Positions 7,744 to 55,720 of a stretch of 64,000 bases of DNA are shown in pieces. Source of the stretch: an uncultured Pseudomonadota bacterium (GTDB taxonomy: Bacteria > Oederibacteriota > Muellerivitia > Muellerivitales > Muellerivitaceae). The stretch spans positions 105,424-169,423 of the forward strand of contig CAWJKT010000010.1 in NCBI GenBank assembly GCA_963843375.1, read 5' to 3'. Numbering within the stretch: the stretch's first letter is position 1; every line of letters begins with the position of its first letter. The notes beneath the pieces were generated by a model. That model saw nothing but the letters and a program-made list of their open reading frames with translations. It was not told the DNA's origin and searched no databases. The translations under genes were made by a program, and so were the position numbers.

Positions 7744-7772
7744 TTGCGATAGCGGGAAAAATTCCCTAATAT
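7744..7772 (+). promoter_or_regulatory. Putative promoter (TTGCGA, 17-nt spacer, TAATAT) upstream of dapA
   Basis: Hexamers with a 17-nt spacer in the lysA-dapA intergenic region. Confidence 0.3.
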
Positions 7773-7791
7773 AACTTTCACACAACTCCAA

Positions 7792-7809
7792 CCCCCAATC
7801 GGGGGTTTT
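7792..7809 (+). terminator. Rho-independent terminator after lysA / in the dapA leader
   Basis: CCCCC-AATC-GGGGG hairpin followed by TTTTGTTATTTT. Confidence 0.55.
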
Positions 7810-7840
7810 GTTATTTTGGGACAAAGGACCGGTAAATCGA

Positions 7841-8737
7841 ATGTTTCGTGGAGCTTATACCGCGCTGGTGACGCCATTTAAAAATGGACAGGTGGATTAT
7901 GGAGCCCTTGAGGCTTTGATTGAAAACCAAATATCAAAAGGTATTGACGGTCTTGTGCCGTGCGGCACGACGGGGGAATCCCCCACACTGACGGAAAAAG
8001 AACACGGGGAAGTTATTGCCTTTACGGTAAAGACTTCCCGGGGAAGGCTTCCAGTGATCGCTGGAACCGGCTCAAACGCCACTGCGGAAGCCATTCAACT
8101 CTCTCGGCACGCTAAAGAAGTTGGCGCTGACGCGGTTTTATTGGTTTGCCCCTATTACAACAAACCCAGCCAAAGAGGCCTCATCGCTCATTTCACCGCC
8201 ATTGCGGATGCGGTGGTTATTCCCCAAATTCTTTACAACATCCCTGGGAGGTCGGTGATCAACATGACTCCTGAAACTATTTTCGAACTTTCAAGGCATC
8301 CAAACATCGTCGGCGTCAAGGAAGCCAGTGGTAACTTGGAACAAATGACCCGGATAAGAAGTCTTTGTGCCCCCGATTTTTCCCTCATCTCGGGGGATGA
8401 TACTCTCACCCTTCCCGTTCTGTCGGTTGGAGGCACAGGAGTCATATCGGTGACATCCCATATAATCCCGCAGGAAACTTCCCGAATCGTGCATTCCTAT
8501 CTTGAGGGAAAAACCGACGAGTCCCGTGACCTTTTTATGAAATATTTTGATTTGGTTAAAACGATTGTTACCGCCGATGTGAATCCGGTTGGAATCAAAA
8601 CAGCTCTGGCCCTCCGGGGACAGGTGGCCGAGGAATTCCGGCTTCCCCTGGTTCCCGCATCCCCCGATGCCAAGGAAACCATCCGCAAGCAATTGGACCG
8701 TCATGGATTATTGGCGCCTGCTGGGCAGCGCCGATGA
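7841..8737 (+). CDS. dapA: 4-hydroxy-tetrahydrodipicolinate synthase
   Basis: GLVPCGTTGESPTL motif; start taken at the internal ATG (MFRGAYTALVTPF) 10 nt after AAGGA; the ORF-track start at 7808 overlaps the terminator. Confidence 0.9.
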   Translation: MFRGAYTALVTPFKNGQVDYGALEALIENQISKGIDGLVPCGTTGESPTLTEKEHGEVIAFTVKTSRGRLPVIAGTGSNATAEAIQLSRHAKEVGADAVLLVCPYYNKPSQRGLIAHFTAIADAVVIPQILYNIPGRSVINMTPETIFELSRHPNIVGVKEASGNLEQMTRIRSLCAPDFSLISGDDTLTLPVLSVGGTGVISVTSHIIPQETSRIVHSYLEGKTDESRDLFMKYFDLVKTIVTADVNPVGIKTALALRGQVAEEFRLPLVPASPDAKETIRKQLDRHGLLAPAGQRR

Positions 8738-9552
8738 GTGTGCGCTTAGCCGTATCCGGTGCTACGGGCCGGATGGGCCATACAATCCTTGAATTGGTTT
8801 CCAAAGACCCCCAATTTGAAATTACCGGTGCGTTAGAATCAAGTTCCCATGCGGCAGTTGGCAAAAGCCTGTCGGAAGTTTTGCCTTCCCTGGGAACGGG
8901 GTTTAAAGTCTCGGTAAATTCGGCCATTTCCCGATTGAATCCCAAACCCCAGGTTCTGATCGATTTCACCCAACCGGCGGCAACCTTGGGTTATTTAAAA
9001 GAGGCGGCGGCTTCCGGTATCGGATTGGTGATTGGAACCACTGGTTTTTCGTACCCCGAAAAAAAATTAATTCATGATGCCGCTAATACCATTCCAATAG
9101 TTATGTCCTCCAACATGAGCGTCGGCATGAACCTGCTTTTTGCCCTGGTGGAAGAAGCGGCGGCCAAACTGGGTCAAGATTACGATGTGGAAATCGTGGA
9201 AGCCCACCATCATTTCAAAAAAGACGCGCCTTCCGGTTCGGCTTTAAGCCTAGGGGAATCAGTAGCCCGTGCCTGGAAAGTGAACCTAAAGGATGTCGCC
9301 ACCCATGGCAGGGAAGGGCAGGTTGGGGAACGAAAAAAAGGAACCATTGGTTTTCATGCGGTCCGGGGCGGTGATATTGTGGGTGACCATACCGTCCTTT
9401 ACGCGGGCCAGGGCGAACGATTGGAATTGACACATCGGGCCAGTAGCCGGGAAGCTTTTGCGAGGGGAGCCTTAAAAGCGGCCCTGTTCCTTTCCACTAA
9501 AAGTAATGGATTTTATGACATGTTTGACGTCCTCAGTTTACGTAGTAAATAA
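8734..9552 (+). CDS. dapB: 4-hydroxy-tetrahydrodipicolinate reductase
   Basis: VSGATGRMG NAD(P)-binding motif, EAHHHFKKDAPSGSA; ATGA overlap with dapA. Confidence 0.9.
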   Translation: MSVRLAVSGATGRMGHTILELVSKDPQFEITGALESSSHAAVGKSLSEVLPSLGTGFKVSVNSAISRLNPKPQVLIDFTQPAATLGYLKEAAASGIGLVIGTTGFSYPEKKLIHDAANTIPIVMSSNMSVGMNLLFALVEEAAAKLGQDYDVEIVEAHHHFKKDAPSGSALSLGESVARAWKVNLKDVATHGREGQVGERKKGTIGFHAVRGGDIVGDHTVLYAGQGERLELTHRASSREAFARGALKAALFLSTKSNGFYDMFDVLSLRSK

Positions 9553-9597
9553 ATTTGAACCGCCAAGTTCACCTAAAAAGACAACGAAATTGTTCCA

Positions 9598-9626
9598 AAC
9601 AAGTTAGGGATTTATTTTAACTTGTT
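9598..9626. promoter_or_regulatory. 9-bp inverted repeat AACAAGTTA-(11 nt)-TAACTTGTT, candidate operator upstream of the FAH-family gene
   Basis: Perfect inverted repeat in the dapB-FAH intergenic region; no T-tract, so unlikely to be a terminator; a TTGACC hexamer follows. Confidence 0.35.
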
Positions 9627-9655
9627 GACCCTGGCGGCAAAAGATTAGGTTCTTC

Positions 9656-10423
9656 GTGAGAATCTCGCGACTTCTTCATAACGGCAAACCCCGCTGGGCC
9701 ATGATGCTGGAATCCGGGGACACTTACCGTCTTTTTCATTCCGACGAACCCTGGAACGACCAGACTTTTGACCCCAAATCCTATCCGGTTCATTCCGAAA
9801 ACCTTTTGGCTCCTGCCCTTCCAAGTAAAATTGTCGCCGTGGGTCTGAATTATCGCGACCACATTCAGGAAATGAAACATGAGGACCACAAGGAGCCGGT
9901 TCTTTTCCTGAAACCACCCTCCGCTTTGTTGAAACCGGAAGGTAAAATCCTGTATCCTCCCTCATCTTCACGCGTAGATTACGAGGCCGAATTGGCTGTT
10001 GTGCTGAAAAGCCGCTTGCGTAAAGCTGGCCCCAAAGAAGCCCTGGAAGCCGTTTGGGGATTCACCTGTTGCAATGACGTGACGGCCCGGGATTTGCAGA
10101 AAACGGACGGTCAGTGGACAAGGGCCAAGGGGTTCGACAGCTTTTGTCCCCTGGGTCCCTGGCTGGTAACGGATTTTTTGGAGAAAAACCAAAAAATATT
10201 ATGCCGGGTAAATGGGGAAACAAAACAATCCGCGAAGATTTCCATGAGGATTTGGAACACGGCTGAATTACTTTCTTTTGTTTCAAAAGTCATGACCTTG
10301 GAACCCTTGGATGTCTTGACTACGGGAACCCCTTCCGGGATTGGGCCCGTAAATCCGGGGGATATCGTTGAAGTTGAAGTAGAAGGAATTGGCATTCTAC
10401 GAAATCAAGTTGCAGCTATTTAG
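9656..10423 (+). CDS. Fumarylacetoacetate hydrolase (FAH) family protein
   Basis: 255 aa, GTG start; FAH-family fold signature (…VGLNYRDHIQE…YEAELAVVL…CNDVTARDLQ…). Confidence 0.85.
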   Translation: MRISRLLHNGKPRWAMMLESGDTYRLFHSDEPWNDQTFDPKSYPVHSENLLAPALPSKIVAVGLNYRDHIQEMKHEDHKEPVLFLKPPSALLKPEGKILYPPSSSRVDYEAELAVVLKSRLRKAGPKEALEAVWGFTCCNDVTARDLQKTDGQWTRAKGFDSFCPLGPWLVTDFLEKNQKILCRVNGETKQSAKISMRIWNTAELLSFVSKVMTLEPLDVLTTGTPSGIGPVNPGDIVEVEVEGIGILRNQVAAI

Positions 10424-10437
10424 ACGCGGAGGAACAA

Positions 10438-11604
10438 ATGGATTTCCCACAAGCCGAACGGATGAAAAAATTTCCACCTTATCTTTTTATCGAAATGGAT
10501 AAAAAGAAAAAAGCGGCCATCGAAAAAGGCGTGGACATCATAAGCCTGGCCATAGGCGACCCCGATTTGGCCACTCCCGATTTCATTGTGGAGGCCCTTT
10601 ACAAAGCCGCCAAAGACAAGGCCAACCACCAGTATCCGCTAGGGCCGGGGCTACCCAAGTTTCGCGAGGCCGTGGCCTATTGGTATGACCGCCGCTTTGG
10701 GGTCAAGCTTGACTGGAAAGATGAAGTGGTGGCCTTGATTGGCTCCAAGGAAGGAATTGGTCATCTTCCAATTGGGATCATCAACCCCGGGGATGTGGTT
10801 CTCATGCCTTCGCCTGGATATCCGGTTTATCATGCGGGAACACTTTTTGCTGGAGGTGAATCTTATTTCATGCCGCTTTTGGAAAAGAACAATTTTTTAC
10901 CCGATTTGGACGCCATTCCGACTGGATGTTCTCAAAAGAGCTAAACTGATTTGGACCAATTCGCCCAATAATCCCACTGCTGTCCTCGCGGGAAAGGATT
11001 TTTTCACCAAAGTGATTGCATTCGCCCAAAAACATCAATCTCATCGTGGCCAACGACGCCGCTTATACCGAAATCTATTACGACGGGGAAAAAGCCGATC
11101 AGTTTCCTGGAACTTCCGGGTGCCAAGGAAGTCGGTGTGGAATTTCATTCCCTTTCGAAAACTTTCAATATGACCGGTTGGCGTGTGGGTTTTGCCGTGG
11201 GAAACAAAAGCGTCGTGAAGGCTCTGGCCGATGTGAAAGGAAACCTAGATTCGGGTGTTTTCAACCCCGTCCAATACGCGGGAATTGCGGCCTTGGAAGC
11301 GCCCGATTCGGTCACGGAAAATATTCGTAAAATCTACCAGGAACGCCGGGATATTTTTGCCGCGGGTTTGAAAAAACTGGGATGGCAATTCCATGTTCCC
11401 AAAGCCGCTTTTTACTTCTGGGTCAAGGTGCCAAACGGCATGACTTCCGCCGATTGGTGCGGAAAGGTATTGGAAGAGGCTGGAATCGTAGTCACACCGG
11501 GCAACGGATTTGGCAAGGAAGGCGAAGGCTATTTCCGCATGACCATTACGGTGGATAAAGCCCGCCTGGAAGAAGCGATACAAAGACTAGGAAAACTCAA
11601 ATAA
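10438..11604 (+). CDS. dapL: LL-diaminopimelate aminotransferase; at least 3 apparent frameshifts
   Basis: Three overlapping ORFs (10438-10944, 10739-11173, 11137-11604) tile a class-I aminotransferase with DapL-type N-terminus (…KFPPYLFIEMDKKK…); SLSKTFNMTGWRVG PLP-lysine motif. Confidence 0.75.
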
Positions 11605-11619
11605 GATGACGGTCGGTTG

Positions 11620-11646
11620 TTGATAAGGCCATTAGTTATCTATAAT
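11620..11646 (+). promoter_or_regulatory. Putative promoter TTGATA-15 nt-TATAAT upstream of folK
   Basis: Strong hexamers but a short 15-nt spacer. Confidence 0.3.
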
Positions 11647-11690
11647 CCTCTGCACCAACCGTCTACCAGCGGCTAAAAGCTGGGAATTAA

Positions 11691-12132
11691 ATGGCTTTGG
11701 TTTATTTGTCTTTAGGGTCAAATTTGGGTAATCGGGACTTAATACTTAGCACAAGCCCGGAAGGCCATCGAGAAATCATTTTCCATCGTCCGATTCTCAA
11801 AGTTTACGAAACCGAACCCGTGGATGTTACGGACCAACCCTGGTTTTTGAACCAAGTGGCCGAATTGCAGACCGACTTGGCGCCGGAAACTTTGCTAGAA
11901 TGGGCACGGGTTTTGGAAAGCCAAGCCGGACGCCAAAGGGACATCCCCAAAAGGCCCACGGACTTTGGACATTGATATATTGCTTTATGATGACTGGATT
12001 TTGGATGTCGAAGAGCTGGTGTTGCCCCACCCGCGCCTGGAGCAACGACGGCATGTTTTAGTACCTTTAATGGAACTATCGCCGGAAAGGATCCTTCCGA
12101 CCACGTCAAAAAACGGTCCGGGAAGCCCTTGA
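11691..12132 (+). CDS. folK: 2-amino-4-hydroxy-6-hydroxymethyldihydropteridine pyrophosphokinase (HPPK); apparent frameshift near 11950
   Basis: N-terminus MALVYLSLGSNLGNR…; after a frame change GPRTLDIDILLYDDWILDVEELVLPHPRLEQRRHVLVPLMELSPE matches the HPPK core. Confidence 0.75.
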
Positions 12133-12166
12133 AACAAGTAAAAGACTTCGGCACAGGTTAAAACCC

Positions 12167-12810
12167 ATGCTTCACCATAAATATATCGCGATCGAGGGTC
12201 CGATTGGTGTGGGGAAAACCAGTCTGGCGGATATCCTCGCCAAAAAACTAAACTCCCGTTTGATATTGGAAGGTGCGGAAGAAAATCCATTCATTACCGA
12301 GTTCTATAAAGACATCAAAAAACACGCTTTCCAAACCCAAATGTTTTTCCTTCTTTCCCGATACCGCCAACAGCAGGAAATGACCCAAAGCGACCTTTTC
12401 CAGCAAGGCATTGTGAGCGACTACGTTTTCGCCAAGGACCGGATTTTCGCCAACCTAACTTTGGACGACAATGAGTTAAAACTTTATGAACAAATTCATT
12501 CCATTTTAGGTGGCGGGTTTTGAAACCCGATTTTGTCATCTATCTCCAGGCTTCCACTGATGTTCTCTTGAAACGAATCTCCATGCGGGGTCGGAAATTT
12601 GAAAACCAAATCACAGGGGATTACTTGGCGGAATTGAATCAGGCCTATAACTATTATTTCTTCCACTATCAGGAAACTCCTTTGATGGTCGTCAATACAA
12701 GTGAGATCGATTTTGTCCACCGGGACGCGGACCTGGACGATCTTTTGACTCACATGGCGAAAGTCACCAAGGGAACGGTTTATTACCAACCCGTCAGCGT
12801 GAAAAAATAA
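12167..12810 (+). CDS. Deoxynucleoside kinase family protein; apparent frameshift near 12510
   Basis: P-loop IAIEGPIGVGKTS plus dNK-type motifs; two ORFs (12167-12523, 12520-12810) join into one ~210-aa protein. Confidence 0.75.
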
Positions 12811-13626
12811 TGTCCGCCAAACAAACACCATATTGGATTTCCAAAACAAGTGCGACCGGGGTGAAAAACTCGTTGTGGTGACGGCTTATGATTATTCCAT
12901 GGCTTTGGCGGTTGATGCCGCCGGGGTGGATGCCATTCTCGTGGGGGACAGCCTTTCCATGACCATGTTGGGCCGTCCCAATACTCTTTCGGCCACGATG
13001 GATGAGATGATCCACCACACCAAGGCGGTTACAAAGGGGGTCAAGAATGCCCTTATTATAGGGGACCTACCTTTTCTTTCTTATCAACTTGGGACTGGAA
13101 GAGGCTTTGGATAACGCCGGAGCCTTCCTCACCGAAGCTGGAGCCCAAGCGGTGAAACTGGAATGGTGTCCGCAAGCCCCCGAAGTAACGGCCTTTTTGG
13201 TTGAGAATGGGATTCCGGTCATGGGCCACGTGGGTTTTACCCCTCAACATGTTAACCAATTAGGGGGCTATCACTCCCAAGGTAAGGACAAGTCCACTGC
13301 CTTAAAATTACTTCAACAAGCAAAAGCATTGGAAAAGGCGGGCGCTTTTTCGGTGGTTTTGGAATTGGTGCCGGCAGAAGTGGCAAAAAAAATAACCGAT
13401 TCACTTCGAATTCCAACAATTGGTATTGGTGCCGGACCCTTATTGTGACGGCCAAGTCCAGGTCCTTCACGACCTTTTGGGATTGCTTCCCGACTTTCAT
13501 CCCAAACACGCCAAAGCTTATCTTAAACTGCACGAAGCTATTCGTGATGCCGTCCAACAATATGCCTATGGAAGTAAGAACCCAAAAATTCCCCAAGTAA
13601 GGCATCATCCCAAAGGTCCCCAATGA
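12810..13626 (+). CDS. panB: 3-methyl-2-oxobutanoate hydroxymethyltransferase; at least 3 apparent frameshifts
   Basis: Pieces in three frames: MSAKQT…, [44 protein letters not shown]…MIHHT…, then [24 protein letters not shown]… and a C-terminal segment; start ATG overlaps the kinase stop. Confidence 0.75.
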
Positions 13627-14468
13627 AAACTATCGTAGCTCCTTTCGAAGTCCATAAGCTTGTCCGGAAATGGCGTCAAACCCAAAAAACAATTGGTTTT
13701 GTACCGACGATGGGCGCCCTCCATGAAGGTCATTTGGAATTGGTGCGGACCTGCCGCAAGCAAAACAAGATACCGTTGTTTCGATTTATGTGAATCCCCT
13801 CCAGTTCGGTCCCCATGAGGATTTCAACCAATATCCCCGGATGATGGAAAAGGACTTGGAACTCCTCCAAAAAGAAAAAGTTCATTTGCTTTACAACCCA
13901 ACGAACCGGGAAATGTACCCGAAAGGATTTTCCACTGAAATCAAAGTTAAGGGACCACTGGTCGAAGGTCTTTGCGCGCCCTATCGCCCCGGACACTTTG
14001 ACGGCGTGGCCACGGTGGTGGTTAAACTTTTGGGAGCCGTTCAACCCGACCGGCTTTACCTTGGCCAAAAAGACGCACAACAAGCCGCTGTCCTAAAAAA
14101 GGTGATCGCAGATCTTGAACATTGCGACCCAGACAGTGACATGCCCAATCGTCCGTGAACATGATGGACTGGCCATGAGCTCCCGGAATCAAAAATTAAG
14201 TTTGGAAGGACGGAATATTGCGCCTGTCCTTTACAGAGCGTTGAAAGTGGGGAAGAGCATCGTGGAATTGGGAGAAACCGAGTAGTCGAAAAAGTGCTGG
14301 AAGAAATAAAAAAAGTGATTGCTGATGAACGTAAAGTCAAGATTCAATACTTGGAGGCGGTAAAAGCCGAAAGCTTGGAGCCTGTAAAGCGAAATAAATC
14401 CGGGCACGACTGATTGCCTTGGCGGCCTACCTTGACAATGTCCGGTTGATTGACAATATTGTTATCTA
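13623..14468 (+). CDS. panC: Pantoate-beta-alanine ligase; about 4 apparent frameshifts
   Basis: [37 protein letters not shown]… (HxGH), then in other frames …[16 protein letters not shown]…[10 protein letters not shown]…[10 protein letters not shown]… and …SSRNQKLS… ending …[15 protein letters not shown]. Confidence 0.7.
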
Positions 14469-14601
14469 ACAGAAAACCGATTGTTATTTCGAATCGCAGA
14501 AAGACGGAAATGACCTTAAATAAGGCATTGCTTCTTGAAGGCTGGATGCGTCCGGTCTTTCGGTTAAACTGTCGAATATTGAATCCCAATTCGAGGAAAA
14601 C

Positions 14602-14976
14602 ATGGCCCGTACATTCGTTAAATCCAAGATCCATCAAGTGAGTGGTTACTCAAACCGAACTTTGGTACGAGGGAAGTATCACGCTGGATTCAAAATTGAT
14701 GAAAGCCGCAGACATCGCCCCTTATGAGCAGGTTCACGTCTTGAATCTTAACAACGGCAGCCGGATCGCTACTTATGCCATTGAAGGGAAAGCCCAATTC
14801 GGGGGTCGTGTGCATGAACGGGGCGGCGGCCCGGCACACTGAGATCGGTGACAAGCTCATCGTTCTTGACTTATGAAAGTTTTCCCCAGGCACCTTCCGC
14901 CGGTTATTCTCCGACCGTAGTTTCGGTCAACGCGGAGAACAAAGTCACGAAGGTAAAGAGAGGAAGCTTGACCATG
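14602..14976 (+). CDS. panD: Aspartate 1-decarboxylase; about 3 apparent frameshifts, true stop unclear
   Basis: MARTFVKSKIH… then YEGSITLDSKLMKAADIAPYEQVHVLNLNNGSRIATYAIEG… then NGAAAR…; the reading frame runs into nadA, so the native stop is lost or fused. Confidence 0.6.
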
Positions 14977-15909
14977 TCACTTGACCTGTTTTTAGATGAC
15001 ACGGAACTTATTGCCCGCATCCAGGAACTGAAAAAGGAGCGAAAGCCATTATTTTGGCCCATAGTTATGAGCGGCCCGGAAGTACAGGATATCGCTGATT
15101 ATGTCGGGGATTCTCTGGAACTTTCCCGTTTGGCGGCAAAGACGGATGCCGATGTCATCGTTTTTTGCAGCGTCCATTTCATGGCGGAAACCGCCAAAAT
15201 CCTTTCACCCCAAAAAACCGTTTTATTGCCCGCCGCTGAAGCGGGTTGCCCACTGGCCGATATGATCACGCCCGCCCAATTGGAAGCGGAAAAAGCCAAG
15301 TATCCGAATGCCGCGGTGGTGGCCTATGTCAATTGTTCCGCCGAAATCAAGTCCATGGCCGACGTCTGCTGTACTTCGGCGAATGCCCTTCAGGTCGTAA
15401 ATGCCATGCCCCAGGAAGAAATTCTTTTCGTGCCCGACCACCACCTGGGCCGCTGGGTGCAGACCCAGACGCATAAAAAAATGATCCTCTGGGCAGGCTG
15501 CTGTCCGACGCATCAGCGGATGAAGCCCAAGGACATCATCGCCCTCAAGCAGGAACATCCGGACGCGGTCGTGGTGGTCCATCCCGAGAGCAACGAGGAT
15601 ATCTGCAACATGGCGGACGCCATCCTTTCGACGTCCCAAATGCTGCGTTATTGCCAGGGCTCACCGGCCAAAACCTTCATCATCGGCACCGAAATGGGTA
15701 TGCTGCACCGTCTGCGAACATCCATGCCGGAAAAAAGTTTCCTTCTTCCGACCAAAAGTCTTATTTGCCCCAACATGAAAATGACCCAATTGGAAGATGT
15801 TTACGAGTCCTTGAAGGAACTCCAACATCCCATCGAAATTCCCGAACCCATCCGGATCAAGGCGCTCAAAGCTCTCGACGGCATGTTGGCGGCGGTTCCC
15901 ACGAAGTGA
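14974..15909 (+). CDS. nadA: Quinolinate synthase A (with a compensating indel pair at ~15047/15078)
   Basis: ATG after an AGAGGAAG RBS; conserved …EVQDIADYVGDSLELSR…VHFMAETAKIL…; a 10-codon stretch reads KPLFWPIVMSGP where the family consensus AIILAHSYERP is recovered by -1/+1 indels. Confidence 0.85.
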   Translation: MSLDLFLDDTELIARIQELKKERKPLFWPIVMSGPEVQDIADYVGDSLELSRLAAKTDADVIVFCSVHFMAETAKILSPQKTVLLPAAEAGCPLADMITPAQLEAEKAKYPNAAVVAYVNCSAEIKSMADVCCTSANALQVVNAMPQEEILFVPDHHLGRWVQTQTHKKMILWAGCCPTHQRMKPKDIIALKQEHPDAVVVVHPESNEDICNMADAILSTSQMLRYCQGSPAKTFIIGTEMGMLHRLRTSMPEKSFLLPTKSLICPNMKMTQLEDVYESLKELQHPIEIPEPIRIKALKALDGMLAAVPTK

Positions 15910-16742
15910 AAAGGGCTCCATCCAGGCGCCTTGGAATCGTCGGTTGTGGCGCCATCGGTTCGCTGGTAGCCCGTCTCCTTGAAAATAAAAAATCTTCCTT
16001 TCGCGTTACCGCACTTTTCGACATTAACCGCTCATCCGCTGTTGGACTCTCAAACAAATTGAAATCTCGACCTGCTATTTGTGCCCGGAGTAAGTTCCGT
16101 TGCTCGAGAAATGCGACATCGTTTTGGAAGCGGCTTCCGTTCCGAGCGTCGCTTGCTATTGCTATTTCCGCATTGAAAAAAAAGAAACCCATCGTGATGA
16201 TGAGCACCGGGGGATTTCTTCTTCATCAAAAACAATTGGAAAAACTAGCCCGGCGTTACCGGACCAAAATTCATCTTCCCTCAGGAGCCCTTTGCGGATT
16301 GGACGGTTTAAAAGCCGCCCGGCAAATCGGTGAAATAAGGGAATTGCGCATCACCTCCACTAAACCATCCAAGGAGTTTTGAGGGGGCTCCCGGTTTAAC
16401 CTCATGCTCAAAAACAAATTGCTTTCCAAAAGAAAAACCCCTTTTTATCTTTATCGCGGGGATGTTTGGGGAGCTATCCATCGTTTTCCGGCTAATATCA
16501 ATGTGGCCGCGACAACGGCTTTGGCTTCTGGAAATCCCCAAAAACTCAAAGTTCGGATCATGGCCGATCCAAAAACCAAATTTAATCAGCACGAAATTCA
16601 TGTTTCAGGTGATTTTGGCGAGTTGACAGCTGTCTCTCGCAACTTTCCTTCAAAGCAGAACCCCAAAACCAGCGCCTTAGCCATACAAGCGGCCCTCGCG
16701 CTCTTTGAGCGTTTGGAAAGTTATGTGGAAGTGGGAAACTGA
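15906..16742 (+). CDS. nadX: L-aspartate dehydrogenase; about 4 apparent frameshifts
   Basis: GTG start overlapping the nadA stop (GTGA); LGIVGCGAIGSLVARLL Rossmann motif; downstream segments in other frames (…LLEKCDIVLEAASVPSVA…, …FPANINVAATTALASGNPQKLKVRIMADP…HEIHVSGDFGELTA…NPKTSALA…). Confidence 0.7.
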
Positions 16743-17728
16743 TGCCAGAACCATCGACTACCGGCGTTCCCTGCGCGATTCAAATAAGGAATCTTTCGAA
16801 AACATATAAAACCGGTTTTTGGTTCACCCCCAAAATCACTCACGCCCTTAAAAATCTTCACTTGGATGTTTACGAAAATCAGGCTTTCGGCCTAATGGGT
16901 CTTGAATGGGGCCGGAAAAACAACGGTTATTAAGTTGGTCTTGGGTCTTTTGAAACCTACGAAAGGATCCATTGAGGTTTTAGGCGGAAAAATTTCCAAT
17001 AGTCAAGTCCGCAAGCAAATAGGATATCTTTCCGAATTGCCCTATTTTTCCAAACAGCATACCGGTCAGGGAGTTACTTGAATATTTTGGCTCCTTGCAT
17101 GGCTTAGTCGGGTTAGCCACTCTGGCCCACCGGGTGGATGAAATTTTGAATTAGTCAGAATGACTCCGACCTGCCAAAGATAAAGTTTCCGGATATTCCA
17201 AAGGAATGCTCCAGCGCATCGGAATAGGTCAGGCGCTTATTGGAAAACCCACAACTCCTTATTTGCGATGAACCCATGAGTGGCCTGGACCCTGTGGGTT
17301 ACAAGGAGATGCGGGATATATTCATCGACTTGAAAAAAACAGGAACGACCCTTTTTCTAAACACCCACATCTTGGATGAAGTGGAACGTATTTGCGATCA
17401 GTATCGGAATTCTCCATGACGGAATGTTGAAAGAAACGGTACCTACATGTCCAAAATCCTGGAGTCTTCCGTTCCGGTGGATTATTGGGTGGATGTGGAG
17501 AAGGCGGAGGCGGCCAAATTGTCGGGCATGCCGTTTCAGGACGCTATCCACCATAATGGTGGGGTTCAAATAACGGGTTTGGTGCTTGCGGAAACCCTCG
17601 CTCTTTTAAACTCCCGAAAAGCCAAAATAAAGGGAGTGCGGCCCCTTTCCTCATTGGTGGAGGCTTATTTCCTTAATGCGATCGGGGCTCAAGACCATTT
17701 GACCCGGTCCCTTCGGAGGAGGAAAAAC
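16742..17728 (+). pseudogene. ABC transporter ATP-binding protein (ABC-2 type), multiply frameshifted
   Basis: Walker A region corrupted (…GLMGLEWGRKNNGY vs expected GxxGAGKTT, recovered in another frame: TVIKLVLGLLKPTKGSIEVLGG…); signature LSGGMLQRIG-like and Walker B/H-loop segments appear in shifted frames; no clean stop before the permease. Confidence 0.55.
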
Positions 17729-18507
17729 ATGAATCGAATTCTAGCCGTAGGAAATTTTACTTACCGGGAATTGATCCGAAGCAAGATGCTGTTTATTTGG
17801 CTAATTAGCGTGGTAGTATTTGTGGTCTGGCTTTTCTTTTGTCCATCCTGAGTTTTGGCAGCGTCCTTGAGATATTCATGGATTTGGGATTAACCGGAAT
17901 GGAAATATCGGGGTTGTTGGTTCTCGATTTTAAGTCTGGCCGTGACCTACACGACGGAAATGGATCAAAAAGCCATTTACCTCCATTTAGCCAAACCCCT
18001 CACGAAGGGAGAATATCTCTTGGGTCGAATTCTGGGTTTTTATGGGGTGATTTTGTTGGTGGTACTCGGGATGGGTTTGGTGGTAGTCGGATTGTTGTTT
18101 TTGTCGGGGGTGGCCAGATTCCCCCGCTCTTTCTACGATTGTGTTGTTTTCATCCTATTGGAAATGTTCGTCCTAACCGATTCTGGGGTTGACTTATCCA
18201 AATGATCGCCACTTCCATGGTAGGAGTCGTGCTTTACACCTTTCTTCACTATTTTCCTGGGCCATTGCATCGGTGAAGTGGAATGGCTTTTAAACCAGCA
18301 AATCGCCCAATGGGTTAAAGTTCTTTTGAAGATGATTTATTACATCTTCCAAACTTGGAAGTTTTTAATTTGAAAGACCGGATTTATGATCCCACCATGG
18401 TTTTGGGTTGGACCCAGTGGCAAGAAGTCCTCCTTTACGCCTTGGCTTATTCTTTAACCGTCTTTCTGATCGGATGGATGAATTTGGAAAAAAGGGAATT
18501 TAAATGA
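17729..18507 (+). pseudogene. ABC-2 family permease, multiply frameshifted
   Basis: MNRILAVGNFTYRELIRSKMLFIWLISVVVF… then TM-rich pieces in other frames (…KPLTKGEYLLGRILGFYGVILLVVLGMGLVVVGL…) to a stop at 18505-18507. Confidence 0.5.
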
Positions 18508-18603
18508 ACACGAGTTCGCTTTATGACAGGATTTTAAATTGGGCACCGGGGTTGATTATGGTGGCTGTTTCTAACCCAGGCTTTTCTTTCCCGATCTAGA
18601 ATC

Positions 18604-19216
18604 ATGGGTACATCCCGAATCTTTCGAAGTTGGCGGGGTCATCAAAAAATGGATCAAAGAGTTTCATCCACTTTACGAGCCGTGGCTTTTTTAAGCGGAT
18701 ACAAAGTGCTCGTGGGACATGTCTTTTGGATTGAGGTGATTCAGTACTATGGGGACTCAGATAACGCGGCGACTCGCGTTTTTCAAAATTATATGATTAC
18801 TGCAGTTTGGCTTCGGATCTTAATCCCCAATTTATCTCCATTTATACCTTTGGCGGCCGCCGCCTTGGCGTTTCATTTGAAACGAATCGACGAAGGCGAC
18901 GCAATTATTGGAAAAAGGGATAAAGTCCAATCCCCACGCCGAACGGCTTAAGTTTCTCCTGGCCGCCATTCTTTACCAACACACCGAAAAGGAAGAGGAT
19001 TTGATTCCAGTCCTTGAGGAGGAAGCGGGGCGCCCTGACGCACCCCCGATGCTGGTGAACATATTGGCCAATACGTATAAAAAAGTGGGCCGCTACCAGG
19101 ATGCCATCCGGGTTTGGAAAAAAATTCTCCAAACTGGTGAAACGGATATGCAAAGGATCACGGCCGCCCAAAAGCTTCAGGAGCTTTACCTGATTACCAA
19201 GGTTGCCAAGCCTTGA
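18604..19216 (+). CDS. Hypothetical protein (two ORFs possibly joined by a frameshift near 18910)
   Basis: ORFs 18604-18951 and 18908-19216 are co-directional and overlapping; no recognisable family. Confidence 0.3.
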
Positions 19217-19232
19217 GGTTCTGGAATACTCA

Positions 19233-20171
19233 ATGATCCATCTTGTCACCCTTAATCCCGCGTTGGACTTGGAACTTCGATTAAAAGAACCGATCCAGGG
19301 AAAAATTGGGGAGGTTTTGGAGTCGAACGTGGAAGCTGGCGGCAAAGCTCTCAATATCGCCCGATTTTTTCGAAAATGGAGGATACCGGCCAGGACCTGG
19401 TTGGGAACCGGCGGGGGAAATCACCCCACCCATCATCTTTATCGTTCTTTGCTGGCAAGGGAAGGACTGGCCCCCTATTACCTCAGTTCAAAAGTTCCCA
19501 TCCGGTTAAATGTAGTGGTGGAAAACAATCGAAAAACAAAAAAATATAATCATCCCGGTTTCGAACTGGATTTAGGAGAATTCGGCCGTTTGGATAAGGC
19601 AGTTAAAAAAGATGATCTATTGGTAATGACGGGCCGACTTCCCAAGGGAATGAATCCAGCCCTTTATGGGTCTTGGATACAAGTCTTCAAGCGCAGAGGT
19701 GTTTGGACAGTGGTCGATAGCTCAGGCCCGGCTCTTCGAGAAGCTCTTAAGGCCAAACCTTGGTTTTTCAAAGTGAATCTTTACGAATTTTCGGAATCGA
19801 TTCACCGCAAATTATCCGGGTTAAAGCAGGTTTATCAATACTTGCCAAACCTCTTTAAATCCGGTCTTTTCCACGGAGCTGTGACGAATGGAATCGAAGG
19901 CGCGTTGCTTTGGAACGGTAAAGAAGTTTGTTGGGTCAAGTCTCCCCAAAAGGTAATCGGACGTATGGTCGTGGGAGCGGGAGATGGTTTTTTAGCGGGA
20001 TATTTAAAGAGCCGGCAAACTGGAAAAAACTTCATCGAATGCGCCCGCCTGGCATCCGCCACCGGCACGGCGGTTGCTTTAACCGGAATTATGGGCTTTG
20101 AACCTCGATTAATCTCCCGTTTAGCCAAAAGCATAAAAGTGAAAAAGTTTAAGGATCTCAATGAATCTTGA
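19233..20171 (+). CDS. PfkB-family carbohydrate kinase (1-phosphofructokinase/tagatose-6-P kinase-like)
   Basis: MIHLVTLNPALD N-terminus, GGKALNIAR, C-terminal GAGDGFLAGYL motif. Confidence 0.75.
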   Translation: MIHLVTLNPALDLELRLKEPIQGKIGEVLESNVEAGGKALNIARFFRKWRIPARTWLGTGGGNHPTHHLYRSLLAREGLAPYYLSSKVPIRLNVVVENNRKTKKYNHPGFELDLGEFGRLDKAVKKDDLLVMTGRLPKGMNPALYGSWIQVFKRRGVWTVVDSSGPALREALKAKPWFFKVNLYEFSESIHRKLSGLKQVYQYLPNLFKSGLFHGAVTNGIEGALLWNGKEVCWVKSPQKVIGRMVVGAGDGFLAGYLKSRQTGKNFIECARLASATGTAVALTGIMGFEPRLISRLAKSIKVKKFKDLNES

Positions 20172-21456
20172 AAATCGAATGATTTATTCCGTTTCTGAGC
20201 TTCTTCAATCCGCCCGAATGCTTTTGGAAACCAAGTTTCCGAATATTCTGGTCCAAGGTGAAATAACTGATTTCAAACATCATTCTTCCGGTCATATGTA
20301 TTTTTCCCTCAAGGACGAGAAAAGTGTTTTACGATGCGCTTTTTTCAAAGGCAATAACTTTGGGCTAGCCTTCAAGCCCGAAAACGGCTTAAAAGTGGTG
20401 GCGGGAGGTCTTATCACGATCTACCAAGGCTACGGCCAGTTTCAAATGAATGTTCAGTTGCTGGAGCCTCAAGGTGTGGGCGGCCTTCAATTAGCCTTTG
20501 AGCAGTTGAAAAAGAAACTGGCCGAAGAGGGCCTTTTTGATCCGGCAAGAAAAAGACCTCTCCCCAAGTACCCAAAACGAATCGCCATTGTTACCTCGGG
20601 GCAGGGAGCGGCCCTGCAAGATTTTTTGAAAATTCTTGCCACCCGGGTTGGAGTTGAGGACTTTGATGTTTTCGACGTCAAGGTTCAGGGTAAGGAAGCC
20701 CCTGTTGAAATCATTTCTGCTATCCGGGAAATTTCTGAAAAAGCGCTCCACGATGTTCTGGTTTTAACCAGGGGTGGAGGCAGCCAGGAAGATCTGGCGG
20801 CCTTCAACGACGAAAGGGTGGTGAGAGAGCTGGCCTCCTCAAGCGTCCCGACCATTTGCGCCGTAGGACATGAGGTGGATTTCAGCCTTTGTGATTTCGT
20901 CGCAGATTTGCGGGCTCCGACTCCGACGGCAGCGGCGGCTATGCTGGCCCCCGGACGGGATGAGGTGGAGTCGGAAATCGCCAATCTGGCTTTGCGGTTA
21001 AAAGACGCCTTGAATGACTTGGTTCAGGAAAGAAAAAGAGACCTTCAAGAACTGTCGGGAATTCTTCAAGAACGCCGACCTGATTATTTAATCACTGAAG
21101 CCCGTCAGAACCTGGACCGCAGAACAGAAGATTTACAGGAAGCTTTACTGAAAGCACTTCAAGATAAGAAACTAATTCTTCAGCGTTTCGGGGATTTTCT
21201 TTCCCGCGCCACACCCCTACAGGCCGTCAAACCTTTCCGTGAAAAGATCCATGGCCTGGAAGCCCAATTACAAGCCTACCATCCTTATGGCCCATTGAAA
21301 CGGGGATATGCGGTGGTCAGCCTCAAAAAGACAGGTGAAATCCTGCGTTCTCCTAAGGGTTTGAAAAAGGGCGACCGTCTTGGCATTCAACTTCAGCAAG
21401 GAACCCTGGAATCTGAAGTGAGCGGCCTTGATGAACAAGGGGATTTGCTTTCGTAA
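20161..21456 (+). CDS. xseA: Exodeoxyribonuclease VII large subunit
   Basis: OB-fold N-terminus (…ILVQGEITDFKHHSSGHMYFSLKDE…), catalytic region, coiled-coil C-terminus; 431 aa. Confidence 0.9.
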   Translation: MNLENRMIYSVSELLQSARMLLETKFPNILVQGEITDFKHHSSGHMYFSLKDEKSVLRCAFFKGNNFGLAFKPENGLKVVAGGLITIYQGYGQFQMNVQLLEPQGVGGLQLAFEQLKKKLAEEGLFDPARKRPLPKYPKRIAIVTSGQGAALQDFLKILATRVGVEDFDVFDVKVQGKEAPVEIISAIREISEKALHDVLVLTRGGGSQEDLAAFNDERVVRELASSSVPTICAVGHEVDFSLCDFVADLRAPTPTAAAAMLAPGRDEVESEIANLALRLKDALNDLVQERKRDLQELSGILQERRPDYLITEARQNLDRRTEDLQEALLKALQDKKLILQRFGDFLSRATPLQAVKPFREKIHGLEAQLQAYHPYGPLKRGYAVVSLKKTGEILRSPKGLKKGDRLGIQLQQGTLESEVSGLDEQGDLLS

Positions 21457-33286: not shown

Positions 33287-33310
33287 CCTCTAAAATATTT
33301 TAACTTTTGT

Positions 33311-34008
33311 TTGAAAGACAATTTCTTGATCGCCGTCGCGAACCCTTCTCCCCGCTGTTTGTTCGTTTATCCCCATTTTACTTCCCAGTCCTTTTGGAAT
33401 TACCGAGCCACCTGTGAGGTGGTAGGTGCCAAATATCCCACAGCCCCCCTAGGACTTATCACCGTGGCAGCCATGCTTCCCCCGGAATGGGAAATTAGGC
33501 TTAGCGACCTGAATGCGGAGGAACTGGACGTACGGGATGTGGAATGGGCCGACATTGTTTTTCTTGGGGGAATGATTGCTCAACAGCCTGATCACTTATA
33601 CCTCATCGATTATTTCAAATCCTTGGGGAAAATAGTTGTCGTGGGAGGCCCGACGCAACATCGAGTCCCCGCCTTTACGATAAGGCCGACTATCTTGTGC
33701 TTGGGGAAGCCGAGGTGACAATGCCCCTATTCCTAGCTGATTTCGCCAAAGGTAAAGCCGGACATTTTTACGAAACAGGTGGTTTGAAAGCAATTATGGC
33801 TGACGGTCCAATGCCTCGTTTCAAACTGCTGAGGTTCGACAACTATCTCCATGTGGGAATCCAATGGAACCGAGGATGCCCCTTCATGTTCAAATTTTGC
33901 GACATCATCGAGCTATTCGGACGGATTCCGCGTGGAAAAAGTGTGGATAAGGTGCTGGAGGTTGCATATATTACGGGTTGTTGCGATTTTACCGATTCTT
34001 TTGTGTGA
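33311..34008 (+). pseudogene. B12-binding radical SAM protein (DUF4070-type), N-terminal fragment only, frameshifted and truncated
   Basis: B12-binding domain (…LFVYPHF…FWNYRATCEVVGAKYPTAPLGLITVAAMLPPEWEIRL…VVGGP) and start of the radical-SAM core (…RGCPFMFKFCDIIELFGRIPR…) in two frames; ends abruptly at ~34000 where the GC-rich MFS gene begins; a full-length protein would be ~480 aa. Confidence 0.6.
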
Positions 34009-38479: not shown

Positions 38480-38623
38480 GAATGACAGGCTACTTGTAAG
38501 GTTTTACATCTTCATTAAGGGTCATTTGGGCGACGAAAAGGCTACTGGGGCGGGCACTTGTCGCCAAAATGGATTAAGCATAAAATGCTTTTAATTGTCA
38601 GGAAGAAACCAAAAGGCATTGAG

Positions 38624-52999: not shown

Positions 53000-53532
53000 A
53001 TACTTATTTCTTAGGTCTGAAATCATTCGGAATTCGGCGATTCGCCTGTTTTTTGCTTTTACTCATTGGCATAACGGGGTGCCACCCCGCCGCCCTGGTC
53101 ATTCCTTCTTACATCCAAAACGTGGGCGTTGACCTTTTTGAAAACCGAACCAGTTACTATGGATTGGATACGATCTTTACCGAGGCCACGATTCGGCAAT
53201 TTCAAATCGACGGAAGGCTACCGATTGAAACGGCGGATAAGGCCGATATGGCCGTAAAGGTCATCATCCGTCAATATATCCGGGAGCCTCAGCTTTACGC
53301 CAATAACACCAATTACGTCCTCGAATACCGTTTGTCCGTTGTCTATGATCTGGCGGCCATCGACCAACGGGAAAAGAAAACGTTCCTTGAGGACACGGGA
53401 AAGGTCCATAGTATTTATTTTTATACTCCCCAATATACGGGAGCGATCCCCGAAACCGAGGACCAGGCGATTACCCAACTTGCCAGTGACATGGCTTACA
53501 CCATTGTCCGCCGTGTTTTAGAAGGAAATTGA
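52996..53532 (+). CDS. lptE: LptE-like LPS-assembly lipoprotein
   Basis: Lipobox (LIGITGC); conserved leuS-lptE-holA position; small beta-rich protein. Confidence 0.55.
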   Translation: MNTYFLGLKSFGIRRFACFLLLLIGITGCHPAALVIPSYIQNVGVDLFENRTSYYGLDTIFTEATIRQFQIDGRLPIETADKADMAVKVIIRQYIREPQLYANNTNYVLEYRLSVVYDLAAIDQREKKTFLEDTGKVHSIYFYTPQYTGAIPETEDQAITQLASDMAYTIVRRVLEGN

Positions 53533-53603
53533 CCGGTGTGTCAAGTCAAACGGAACTTAGAATCTGCAATTTTTAGTTTGAAACCAAAAGACGAGAGGTT
53601 GAC

Positions 53604-54326
53604 ATGAACGGATTGAAAATTAAAAATTTCACATTAATTATTTTGGCTCTCATGTCTTTTACTTTGGCGGGAAGCGCAGGAGCTGATCTGGAGTGGATCA
53701 CCGGTGGCGTTCCTAAAAACGCTCCCGACAAGCCCTCTTCCACGGGCGTGAAAGACGCCCCTCCTGAAGCATCCTCCAGCAGTCCGACGGTTAACCAGGA
53801 CATCATCGTGAGCCATTTGATCACCTGCACCAAAATCGTGAACCAATATCCAGTCGACAGCGTAAACTATTTTTATTTAAACAAAAACGATCAAATTTGT
53901 TATTTCGCTTATTTTTTAATCAAACCTTCCAGTCGAATCCATACTGCGACGGTGGAATGTTTTTCACCGACGAATCTTCGTATCGCGAAATTCGACCAGG
54001 AATTCCAGGTGGGATTCACCGACCGACTTTTGACGATCCAGGACGAAACCTACCAATGGTTCCTGGTGGACCTTACCCTGGGGTTGGACCATCTTCACTC
54101 CGAGTATGGCCAAACCGGCTTGCCAAGAGATGTGGGACTTTACACGATCCACTTAAGCGTGGACGGCCAATTGGTGGGAATCACCTTTTTTTATGTGAAA
54201 CCCGAGGAAACTAAAAACGCCACCCCCGTTGCCACCATACCTCCGGCTCCAAATGCCAGCCTCTTGCCCGTAAGAACCCCTTACACCACCCAACCCATTT
54301 CACCCATACCTCAGGGTATCCCTTGA
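53604..54326 (+). CDS. Secreted hypothetical protein (Pro/Ser/Thr-rich C-terminus) between lptE and holA
   Basis: Signal peptide MNGLKIKNFTLIILALMSFTLAGSAGA; no recognisable domain. Confidence 0.5.
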   Translation: MNGLKIKNFTLIILALMSFTLAGSAGADLEWITGGVPKNAPDKPSSTGVKDAPPEASSSSPTVNQDIIVSHLITCTKIVNQYPVDSVNYFYLNKNDQICYFAYFLIKPSSRIHTATVECFSPTNLRIAKFDQEFQVGFTDRLLTIQDETYQWFLVDLTLGLDHLHSEYGQTGLPRDVGLYTIHLSVDGQLVGITFFYVKPEETKNATPVATIPPAPNASLLPVRTPYTTQPISPIPQGIP

Positions 54327-54358
54327 TCCACTTCGTTTCGTGAAAGAGGAAGGGGACC

Positions 54359-55390
54359 ATGTACTTCGACGACTTTTTAACCCGTCTTAAAAAAAATGAT
54401 TTGCCCCGGGTTCTTTTGCTTTTTGGTGATTCAGAAGGGGTTTTATCCGAAGGCCTTCAAAACATCCGGGAAAAATTTCGCGAAATGGCGCCCGATGGAA
54501 CCTTACAGGTTTTTGACGGACAAGAAATAAACCTTGGGGAAATGTTGATGGCTGCCCAAACATCCTCGCTTTTCGCCACATCTCAGTTACTCGTTTTGCA
54601 GCATGGCGAAAAACTCCTTGGAGGTCATTCGGAGGCGGCTATAGATCGCCTAAAGGATTACTTTTCCAATCCCAATCCTTCTTCCATATTGGTTTTCCTG
54701 GCGCCCGGGATGCGAAAAACCGCGAAAGCGGTAGCAGCCGTGGAACGGATGGGCTGGGCAGTTCAGTGCTCCGATATCCCAGATTGGAAAATGGCGGGCT
54801 GGCTAAAACAACAGGCTCAAACCGTTGGGCTCCAACTTCCCGAAGACGCGGCCCAACTCTTGATCCAAAAAGTTGGGTCCGACATCGCTTATCTCAAAAG
54901 CGCCCTGGAGCAACTTTCCATTTACGCCCATCCGCAAAAATCCATTTCGCATCAATTGGTAATGGAGCTTCCTGTTCCCGGGATAGAATCCGGTATATTT
55001 CAATTTTTGGATGCGGTTGGGCTGCGTCAAACCGAAAAAGCTCTCAAAGTGTTGAACCAGTTGGAAGACGGAGTGGACGCCGGAACCGTCATCATGCTTT
55101 ATGGAAGGGTTCGGGAACTGCTTTTAATCGCCCTGGGTCGGTCGAAAGGCTGGGACCAAACGAAGACAGCCGAGAATCTGGGTTTGCATCCCTTTCGACT
55201 TAAAAGTCTTTGGGATCAAGCCGCCCAATTCTCCGTGGAAGATCTCAAAAACGCCTTAATGGATTTAACACATCTTCAAGCGGGGGTTGTCACAGGGCGA
55301 TTGGGCAAAGCAGTGGCCCCGGTTTATCTGGAATGTTGGGTTTTAAAGTGGGGAAAAAACCGGATGGCCCTGAAAGCGGCCACCCGGTGA
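54359..55390 (+). CDS. holA: DNA polymerase III delta subunit
   Basis: HolA family pattern (…VLLLFGDSEGVL…), conserved position after lptE. Confidence 0.8.
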   Translation: MYFDDFLTRLKKNDLPRVLLLFGDSEGVLSEGLQNIREKFREMAPDGTLQVFDGQEINLGEMLMAAQTSSLFATSQLLVLQHGEKLLGGHSEAAIDRLKDYFSNPNPSSILVFLAPGMRKTAKAVAAVERMGWAVQCSDIPDWKMAGWLKQQAQTVGLQLPEDAAQLLIQKVGSDIAYLKSALEQLSIYAHPQKSISHQLVMELPVPGIESGIFQFLDAVGLRQTEKALKVLNQLEDGVDAGTVIMLYGRVRELLLIALGRSKGWDQTKTAENLGLHPFRLKSLWDQAAQFSVEDLKNALMDLTHLQAGVVTGRLGKAVAPVYLECWVLKWGKNRMALKAATR

Positions 55391-55392
55391 TT

Positions 55393-55653
55393 TTACTTTT
55401 TGAACTTTTTGTGGATAAAAGACGAAAGACGGGAAACTTTGCGGGAAGCGGTGTTTTTCTTAAGAATCCCGTGGGATTGGGCCTTATCCAGGACATGCAT
55501 GGCTTCCTTCAGCTTTTGGGCCGCTTCTTCAGCTGTTTTGGCGGCAAGAACGGCCTTCATGGCAGTGCGGAGTTTGTTCTTTTCAGCGGAATTACGCGCC
55601 GTACGCGTTTTAGTGCGGCGGACGTCTTTGATCGACGACTTAATGATCGGCAT
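55393..55653 (-). CDS. rpsT: 30S ribosomal protein S20
   Basis: 86-aa basic protein MPIIKSSIKDVRRTKTRTARNSAEKNKLRTAMKAVL…. Confidence 0.9.
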   Translation of the reverse strand: MPIIKSSIKDVRRTKTRTARNSAEKNKLRTAMKAVLAAKTAEEAAQKLKEAMHVLDKAQSHGILKKNTASRKVSRLSSFIHKKFKK

Positions 55654-55720
55654 GGATCCTCCAAAAAATTAATCAGCGGCTTCCTAAAATGGAGGCATAT
55701 CGTAAACGAAGGGGGAGACA

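Follow-up and report, generated by a model that had tools for sequence, protein, structure and literature searches.

The frameshifts that break eleven consecutive genes in the window (the whole stretch of DNA analysed, 64,000 nucleotides) are very probably assembly consensus errors on a minor, divergent haplotype segment, rather than mutations that the organism carries. The indels stay within one divergent block and are absent from the assemblies of two independent read sets, the substitutions within the block carry the pattern of purifying selection, and the indel spectrum is non-biological.

Extent and content of the frameshift block

Frameshift-aware protein-to-DNA alignment against intact orthologues placed ~50 frameshifts in the window, all between 10,920 and 18,895 and spread over 11 consecutive genes (Table 1). 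Two independent intact orthologue sets gave concordant totals, with 51 frameshifts when the contig L083 served as guide and 50 with L087, and none was detected in the flanking dapB, FAH, pfkB, xseA, GH, xseB, ispA, DUF212, and dxs (9.2 kb; L087-guided). At the base level, 48 indel events were found in the ~5.7 kb of the block covered by near-identical contigs; over 11,713-14,543, midway through the block, the evidence is at the protein level only, the base-level contigs not extending over folK, dNK, panB, and panC. The original prediction of a hotspot too dense for uniform error is borne out by the clustering of 56 of the 62 events within 13% of the window (binomial P = 2e-42), and its observation that protein similarity is kept within each frame agrees with a corrected path free of stop codons. 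Its count of ~30 frameshifts in ~8 kb was too low, since alignment yields about 50-58, and its end point of 18,507 was too early: the last indel lies at ~18,895 and the last dense SNP at 18,976, so that the TPR gene belongs to the block as well.

Table 1. Coordinates of the block, of the genes it affects, and of the control regions within the window
Feature	Position	Strand	Frameshifts	Remarks
Left flank control (dapA, dapB, FAH)	7768..10470	+		4 mismatches, 0 indels vs L001
Divergent-haplotype block with all indel noise	10471..18976	+		Window vs L001, L082, L085; dense SNPs first at 10,471, last at 18,976; indels first at 10,920, last at ~18,893-18,895
LL-DAP-type aminotransferase (AT/dapL; PF00155)	10438..11601	+	3	Three +1 insertions: 10,920 G; 11,039 T; 11,094 G
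folK (HPPK)	11691..12177	+	6	~6 frameshifts, same positions with both guides; protein-level evidence
Deoxynucleoside kinase (dNK)	12167..12807	+	1	One -1 frameshift at ~12,512-12,515
panB	12810..13597	+	4	Deletion at 12,825; insertions at 13,088, 13,437, 13,567
panC	13623..14466	+	5	
panD	14602..14967	+	3	+1 insertions at 14,641, 14,784, 14,866; a further insertion falls where the gene ends (14,966)
nadA	14974..15906	+	2	Compensated pair, -1 at 15,041 and +1 at 15,073; ORF open
nadX (aspartate dehydrogenase)	15906..16739	+	5	7 single-base insertions at base level
ABC-transporter ATPase	16742..17725	+	7-8 (net)	11 indel events at base level
Membrane permease-like protein	17729..18504	+	8	
TPR protein, 236 aa	18504..19225	+	6	Also one 3-nt deletion
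Right flank control (TPR gene end, pfkB)	18977..20189	+		4 mismatches, 0 indels vs L085/L086
Distant control	53310..55795	+		2,486 bp 100% identical to L088 of the same run

The block begins within the opening codons of one gene and ends ~250 nt short of the end of another, the TPR gene, with some indels falling between genes (11,624-11,682 and 14,575). The functions hit are unrelated: besides the vitamin genes, they comprise an aminotransferase of an essential pathway as well as the dNK, the ABC transporter, and the TPR protein. Indel density is uneven inside the block (KS P = 0.004), with ~11/kb on the right versus ~4.5/kb on the left and an indel-free stretch at 15,075-16,089. No long ORFs remain, save the nadA frame that holds the compensated pair of frameshifts. 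This pair scrambles residues 25-34 of the protein, which read PLFWPIVMSG in the window versus A[VI]ILAHSYER in all full-length homologues compared; public databases list the window's nadA as a protein of 311 aa, and it represents its own 90% cluster.

For the rest of the window, about six events had been predicted, and a similar number (about 5-6 in about 55 kb) was found. Frameshifts were confirmed in argD (~2,780), lysA (6,798), leuS (52,300-52,476), and a B12/radical-SAM fragment (~33,600-33,715), and a HepT-like ORF carries an in-frame stop at 39,084. Three of these four frameshifts (argD, lysA, and leuS) are +1 and the one in the gene fragment is -1; the shared +1 type hints that the error process seen in the block also acts elsewhere at a low background level. 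The contigs beside leuS end short of its frameshift. With L083 as guide, dapA seemed to be frameshifted at 8,723, but this proved to be a false positive reflecting C-terminal divergence, as L001 has no indel there. Exact-protein look-ups for xseA, pfkB, argH, and argF returned no match, probably owing to differing start codons, a homologue search with a concatenated five-protein query returned only distant ABC proteins, and the literature yielded no match to the accessions of the run or the sample.

Two haplotypes of the segment

The window was compared with short contigs of one public run (L001, L082, L085, and L088, assembled from ERR11523672 in Logan; the same-run contigs below), with L086, a contig from a second public run (ERR12076128) that is identical to L085, and with the syntenic relatives L083, L084, and L087, the last of which served as the outgroup. 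Outside the block, the window and the same-run contigs share 99.7-100% identity with 0 indels. Within it, comparison with L001, L082, and L085 gave 276 mismatches (5.0%) and 42 indels (7.6/kb) in the 5,506 bp covered, versus 0.15-0.33% mismatches and 0 indels in the flanks against the same contigs. None of the 48 indels is present in L001, L082, or L085, or in L086 of the second run. Where covered, the aminotransferase (387 aa and intact in L001, L083, and L087), panD, nadA, ABC ATPase, permease, and TPR genes are intact in the contigs of both runs. Comparison of the same loci in related genomes, which had been proposed as a check, gave a clear answer, all eleven genes being intact in L083, L084, and L087.

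From these alignments, the population appears to hold two haplotypes of the 8.5-kb segment, ~5% apart, in an otherwise near-identical background; we call the form found in the public short contigs haplotype A and that of the window haplotype B. The hotspot coincides exactly with the switch to the divergent haplotype, a switch that had not been seen at first reading.

The substitutions in the block are genuine haplotype differences under purifying selection: they are mostly synonymous, and the outgroup frequently matches the window. Third codon positions hold 51 of the 57 mismatches in the aminotransferase gene, 24 of 29 in panD, and 59 of 67 in nadA. With per-gene rows summed, pS is 0.175 and pN 0.015 in the block (pN/pS 0.085; 0.04-0.18 per gene), versus a pS of 0.007 in the flanks, and no in-frame stop codon was found in the ~2,800 aligned codons of the block with either guide. 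At sites where the window and a Logan contig differ, L087 matches the window 139 times (53%), the Logan contig 82 times, and neither 40 times. An origin of the block in a lineage nearer to L087 was considered and rejected, identity to L087 being 0.76-0.88 within the block as well as beyond it. Scans of genome contigs, with nadA, and of metagenome contigs gave no copy of haplotype B free of errors among the matches listed, which were relatives at ~56% identity, and no haplotype-B protein with an intact nadA segment was present among the members of the nadA cluster.

Indel spectrum and competing explanations

Insertions outnumber deletions by 39 to 9 (~4:1), and 42 of the 48 events involve 1 nt, the largest being 3 nt. 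The inserted bases are near-uniform (A 11, G 9, C 8, T 6), and 28 of the 39 insertions (72%) have no identical adjacent base. Indel density does not follow SNP density, and 12% of indels lie within 2 nt of a SNP, versus 22% expected. Scant support for the minor haplotype is thus a better explanation than misalignment induced by SNPs, and the writing of insertions from both SNP alleles into the consensus was rejected, as indels are not enriched near SNPs.

The most probable course of events would be that the 224-kb contig, elsewhere essentially identical to the haplotype A contigs, follows haplotype B through ~10,471-18,976, and that the consensus of haplotype B was built on very little single-molecule long-read data, either as a low-coverage bubble path or as a stretch about one read long that was beyond repair by polishing. 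With such scant support, random single-base errors, mainly insertions, would have survived at ~0.7%, which would in turn suffice to break all 11 genes. We infer the low coverage, the sequencing platform, and the failing assembler step, the first from the coincidence of the block with the minor-haplotype segment. The uneven indel density counts against this course of events, and so does the lack of agreement between indel and SNP density: nadX has the lowest SNP divergence within the block yet many indels, which would not be expected from a simple 'one read' model.

An artefact had been one of two explanations originally offered, and it is strongly supported in general but not in the homopolymer form then proposed. 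Error of the nanopore, 454, or Ion type in a low-coverage region would fit the clustering as well as the existence of intact copies in other assemblies, but is largely refuted by the indel contexts and is an improbable source of the frameshifts. Only 4 of the 148 homopolymer runs of >=4 nt carry an indel, about equal to their share of the covered sequence, the A8 run at 16,176-16,183 has the correct length, most insertions lack an identical neighbour, and insertions dominate rather than deletions.

The second explanation was ongoing decay, in which genes of the lysine branch and of folate, pantothenate, and NAD synthesis are being lost, as would befit a lifestyle of host dependence or cross-feeding. 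A long run of biosynthetic genes is indeed disrupted, and since the haplotype of the block is real and distinct, there is a separate strain that has had a history of its own. Genuine pseudogenisation is nevertheless decidedly unlikely, and the claim of vitamin-pathway decay with host association is not supported. Some 50 neutral indels would imply hundreds of unconstrained substitutions, against the low pN/pS and the lack of nonsense codons observed here. The indels fall outside homopolymers, whereas slippage mutations concentrate in them. No pathway logic is apparent, as dapL is hit while the neighbouring dapA, dapB, and lysA are spared or nearly so, and the ABC transporter, dNK, and TPR genes are hit equally. 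The borders of the block match the haplotype switch and not gene ends, and intact copies exist in the relatives for all eleven genes and in the Logan contigs for the genes covered. Furthermore, real bacterial pseudogenes are deletion-biased and accumulate larger events, with an insertion:deletion ratio of 0.76-0.94 and a mean deletion of ~19 nt (PMC6054270), a ratio from which the 4:1 excess of nearly always 1-nt insertions departs strongly (P = 6e-8).

It is very unlikely that the DNA of the minor strain itself contains the indels, in an 8.5-kb tract that was duplicated or recently brought in by recombination and then suffered an unusual, recent burst of +1 insertions; such a burst may, for example, reflect error-prone repair synthesis along the tract, too recent for relaxed codon constraint to be visible. 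The block might also be a decaying second copy, either a paralogous duplicate or a foreign fragment, which the assembler placed here instead of the functional one, given that the data hold two versions, A intact and B broken, and that the window's flanks match the A contigs. This reading is highly implausible in view of the purifying-selection signature, the absence of stops, and the insertion-biased, 1-nt spectrum; moreover, L001 and L085 pass from the shared flanks directly into haplotype A with no duplication junction seen, and the syntenic relatives carry a single copy within their 20-kb neighbourhood. Recoding, in which real frameshifts are bypassed by programmed ribosomal frameshifting, transcriptional slippage, or RNA editing, would account for the well-preserved protein in each frame and the stop-free corrected path, but its probability is negligible, since the ~50 sites in 11 genes share no common motif or slippery sequence, neither the relatives nor the near-identical haplotype A share any of them, and they extend into spacers and are bounded by a physical block rather than by a gene set.

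Comparison with known systems and significance

Three known systems share features with the block. Gene-fragmenting indels are a feature of assemblies built from PacBio or Nanopore long reads (Watson & Warr 2019, cited in PMC6487183; Kastor tool paper, PMC12007338), in which single-base indels likewise split an ORF into neighbouring pieces lying in different frames. As in the present block, similarity is kept within each frame and the errors disappear in accurate short-read assemblies of the same organism; the insertion bias also matches that of PacBio subreads, in which insertion errors are enriched (PMC6487183). The difference is that the errors here, instead of being scattered along the contig, reach a ~55-fold higher density within a single block of 8.5 kb, located at a strain-level haplotype switch. 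In the allele-specific assembly of T. brucei, apparent frameshifts arose where variants co-exist and were gone once the haplotypes had been separated (PMC8445201). Likewise, the hotspot described here is exactly the variable block, but the T. brucei case concerns a diploid eukaryote and ours a mixed bacterial population, and the indels in the block are not SNP-enriched. Pseudogenes of reductive evolution, such as those of leaf-nodule Burkholderia (PMC6054270) and Sodalis (PMC3091646), share with the block the occurrence of several frameshifts per gene in biosynthetic genes. They differ, however, in their deletion bias, multi-nt indels, nonsense codons, relaxed dN/dS, and genome-wide scatter, in contrast to the insertion bias, 1-nt events, lack of stops, low pN/pS, and single sharply bounded block observed here.

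The main value of the block lies in a data-quality warning. Taken at face value, it would lead to a false assignment of pantothenate, NAD, folate, and lysine/DAP auxotrophy, and of a dependent lifestyle, to an uncultured lineage, and the errors have already entered public protein collections, where a nadA with ten garbled residues is recorded as full-length. The analysis also offers a simple, reference-based and read-free recipe for distinguishing error from decay, which combines the codon position of SNPs, polarisation by an outgroup, the indel spectrum, and the match between block borders and a haplotype switch. The residual biology is modest, namely the presence of two ~5%-divergent haplotypes of this segment in the population.

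Extent of the frameshifted block

Proteins of two syntenic relatives of the window, L083 (a 333-kb contig of GCA_964638935.1) and L087 (a 243-kb contig of JGI 3300079084, with the gene order of the window and a DNA identity of 81.5%), were aligned onto the window by dynamic programming that allowed for frameshifts. With L083 and L087 as guides, 51 and 50 frameshifts were called, respectively (for L087, 36 of +1 and 14 of -1), in near site-for-site agreement, and with both guides all of them fall within 10,924-18,895. The hotspot claimed in the original prediction is real (binomial P = 2e-42 for clustering), with a density of ~6-7 frameshifts per kb inside the block versus ~0.1 per kb outside, but the estimate of ~30 events was too low, and the block reaches ~400 nt further than proposed, into the TPR gene. 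Between ~10.4 and 19.2 kb the plus strand contains no long ORF, except for one 353-aa frame over nadA. With the L087 guide, zero frameshifts were called in the 9.2 kb covering dapB, FAH, pfkB, xseA, GH, xseB, ispA, DUF212, and dxs. The comparison with related genomes that had been recommended was carried out, and every gene is intact in both L083 and L087. Sporadic lesions previously noted elsewhere were also confirmed, namely single frameshifts in argD, lysA, leuS, and a B12-binding/radical-SAM fragment, along with an in-frame stop codon that interrupts a HepT-like ORF.

The block starts in the first codons of the aminotransferase gene and ends ~250 nt upstream of the stop of the TPR gene, and the genes within it serve lysine/DAP, folate, pantothenate, and NAD metabolism and nucleotide salvage, or encode a transporter and a TPR protein. 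Its direct neighbours, dapA and dapB upstream and pfkB downstream, are clean, and spacers within it also carry indels. This geometry argues for a physical rather than a selective cause, and the block length of 8.5 kb would be compatible with that of one long read.

Features of the window, with frameshifts (in the block, from protein-guided alignment) and differences from short public contigs
Feature	Position	Frameshifts	Differences or remarks
argD	2770-2790	1	position of frameshift
lysA	6798	1	position of frameshift
Left flank	7,768-10,470		4 mismatches, 0 indels
Block	10,471-18,976		276 mismatches (5.0%), 42 indel events (7.6 per kb) in 5,506 bp covered
Aminotransferase (dapL-type)		3
folK		6
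dNK		1
panB		4
panC		5
panD		3
nadA	14974-15906	2	-1/+1 pair; ORF stays open
nadX	15906-16739	5
ABC ATPase		7-8
Permease		8
236-aa TPR protein		6
Spacers with indels	11,624-11,682; 14,575
Right flank	18,977-20,189		4 mismatches, 0 indels
B12-binding/radical-SAM fragment	33287-34008	1	-1, near 33,600-33,715
PIN-domain ORF	38,015-38,446		small antitoxin-like ORF upstream
Nucleotidyltransferase-like ORF	38,558-38,923		adjoins HepT-like ORF
HepT-like ORF	38850-39245		in-frame stop 39,084-39,086
leuS	52300-52476	1	position of frameshift
Distal segment	53,310-55,795		0 mismatches, 0 indels

Two haplotypes in the block segment

The window belongs to a contig of 224,236 bp in NCBI/ENA. Short public contigs covering parts of the locus were retrieved via exact-protein look-ups from two runs, ERR11523672 (L001, L082, L085, and L088) and ERR12076128 (L086). 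Whereas the flanks are nearly identical to these contigs, the block diverges abruptly, with dense SNPs running from one of its ends to the other and base-level indels from 10,920 to 18,893; hence, the hotspot coincides exactly with the segment in which the haplotype of the window (B) differs from that of the short contigs (A). L085 and L086 are identical in sequence despite their separate runs, and ABC ATPase, permease, TPR, and pfkB are intact in both.

The mismatches fall mainly at codon position 3 (51/57 in the aminotransferase gene, 24/29 in panD, and 59/67 in nadA), and Nei-Gojobori counts, hand-summed over the block rows, give a pS of 0.175, a pN of 0.015, and a pN/pS of 0.085; the flank pS is 0.007. 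When L087 was used as an outgroup for the sites differing between window and short contigs, it shared the base of the window at 139 and that of the short contig at 82, and differed from both at 40. Matches to an outgroup would hardly ever arise from sequencing errors. Together with the codon-position and pN/pS pattern, the agreement of L087 with the window indicates that the substitutions are real and that haplotype B is a genuine lineage, with genes that evolved under purifying selection. No in-frame stop codon occurs along the frameshift-corrected reading path with either guide.

Origin of the indels

The indels are unlike mutations, in contrast to the substitutions, which are real. Replication slippage is expected to pile events into homopolymers, and no such concentration is present in the block: indels hit only 4 of the 148 homopolymer runs of at least 4 nt, 28 of 39 insertions have no adjoining identical base, and the four nucleotides are inserted at similar frequencies (A 11, G 9, C 8, T 6). 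The suggestion of an assembly artefact holds in substance, whereas its attribution to homopolymer-type sequencing error is contradicted by these contexts. Some 50 neutral indels would, given bacterial mutation spectra, come with several hundred unconstrained substitutions, which would raise pN several-fold over the observed value. The 48 base-level events comprise 39 insertions and 9 deletions, of 1 nt in 42 cases, 2 nt in five, and 3 nt in one. Real bacterial pseudogenes show an insertion:deletion ratio of 0.76-0.94 and deletions averaging ~19 nt (PMC6054270), from which the insertion-biased, mostly 1-nt events of the block differ (P = 6e-8 for the bias), and they instead resemble the insertion-rich, context-independent noise reported for PacBio subreads (PMC6487183).

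Several observations contradict real decay of the cofactor pathways: the signature of selection, the lack of stop codons, the spectrum of the indels, and the geometry of the block, along with the intact syntenic relatives and the contigs of two public runs, intact for the genes covered. The same arguments apply against a misplaced degenerate paralogue, and the haplotype A contigs, moreover, cross from the shared flanks into the segment without a break. Recoding or editing is in practice excluded, as the sites have no motif and are not conserved, and spacers carry indels too.

Most likely, the block is a low-support consensus on a minor haplotype; the coverage, platform, and assembler step involved are what we infer. 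The population would contain two haplotypes of the segment, and the contig would take the minor one, B, whose consensus had little support, either as a low-coverage bubble branch or as a stretch beyond repair by polishing, such that single-molecule errors of ~0.7% would be left over. Gene-fragmenting indel errors are documented in long-read assemblies (PMC12007338; PMC6487183), and collapsed divergent alleles give rise to indel errors (PMC8445201). SNP-induced misalignment was not supported as a source, since indels are not enriched near SNPs. Outside the block, three of the four confirmed frameshifts (argD, lysA, and leuS) share the +1 type of most block events, which suggests the same error process at a low, contig-wide background where coverage is adequate.

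Some features fit a simple model poorly. Indel density is uneven (KS P = 0.004), being higher in the right half and zero in 15,075-16,089, and does not track SNP density: nadX, with few SNPs (pS versus haplotype A of 0.01-0.05; 0.15-0.30 in neighbouring genes), holds the densest insertion run of the block (7 in ~330 nt at base level). This suggests that haplotypes A and B are mosaic, or that read support is uneven.

Other loci and consequences for public data

The B12-binding/radical-SAM fragment, truncated at 34,009 by the start of an MFS transporter gene, looks more like a genuine gene remnant than an error. The HepT-like ORF (DUF86) carries an RxxxH-type motif (TRHKIVHDY). A 914-aa TPR protein, encoded between the 236-aa TPR gene and pfkB in the more distant relatives L083 (14310-17054) and L084, is absent at window 19225-19233 and from L085, L086, and L087. 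Coverage of the lineage by species-representative genomes seems poor, with a best nadA identity of 56% among the matches listed in a collection of them; metagenome contigs at 81-95% identity come from JGI 3300079084 and Logan runs ERR11523672, ERR12076128, SRR28061177, SRR28061259, and SRR12170510.

The nadA of the window is public as a normal 311-aa protein (P0033), which represents its 90% cluster and in which residues 25-34 are garbled to PLFWPIVMSG, versus A[VI]ILAHSYER in every full-length homologue compared. The earlier inference of a host-associated or cross-feeding lifestyle should be dropped. The hotspot is not a biological feature, and it is worth flagging because proteins with such errors have already entered public collections.
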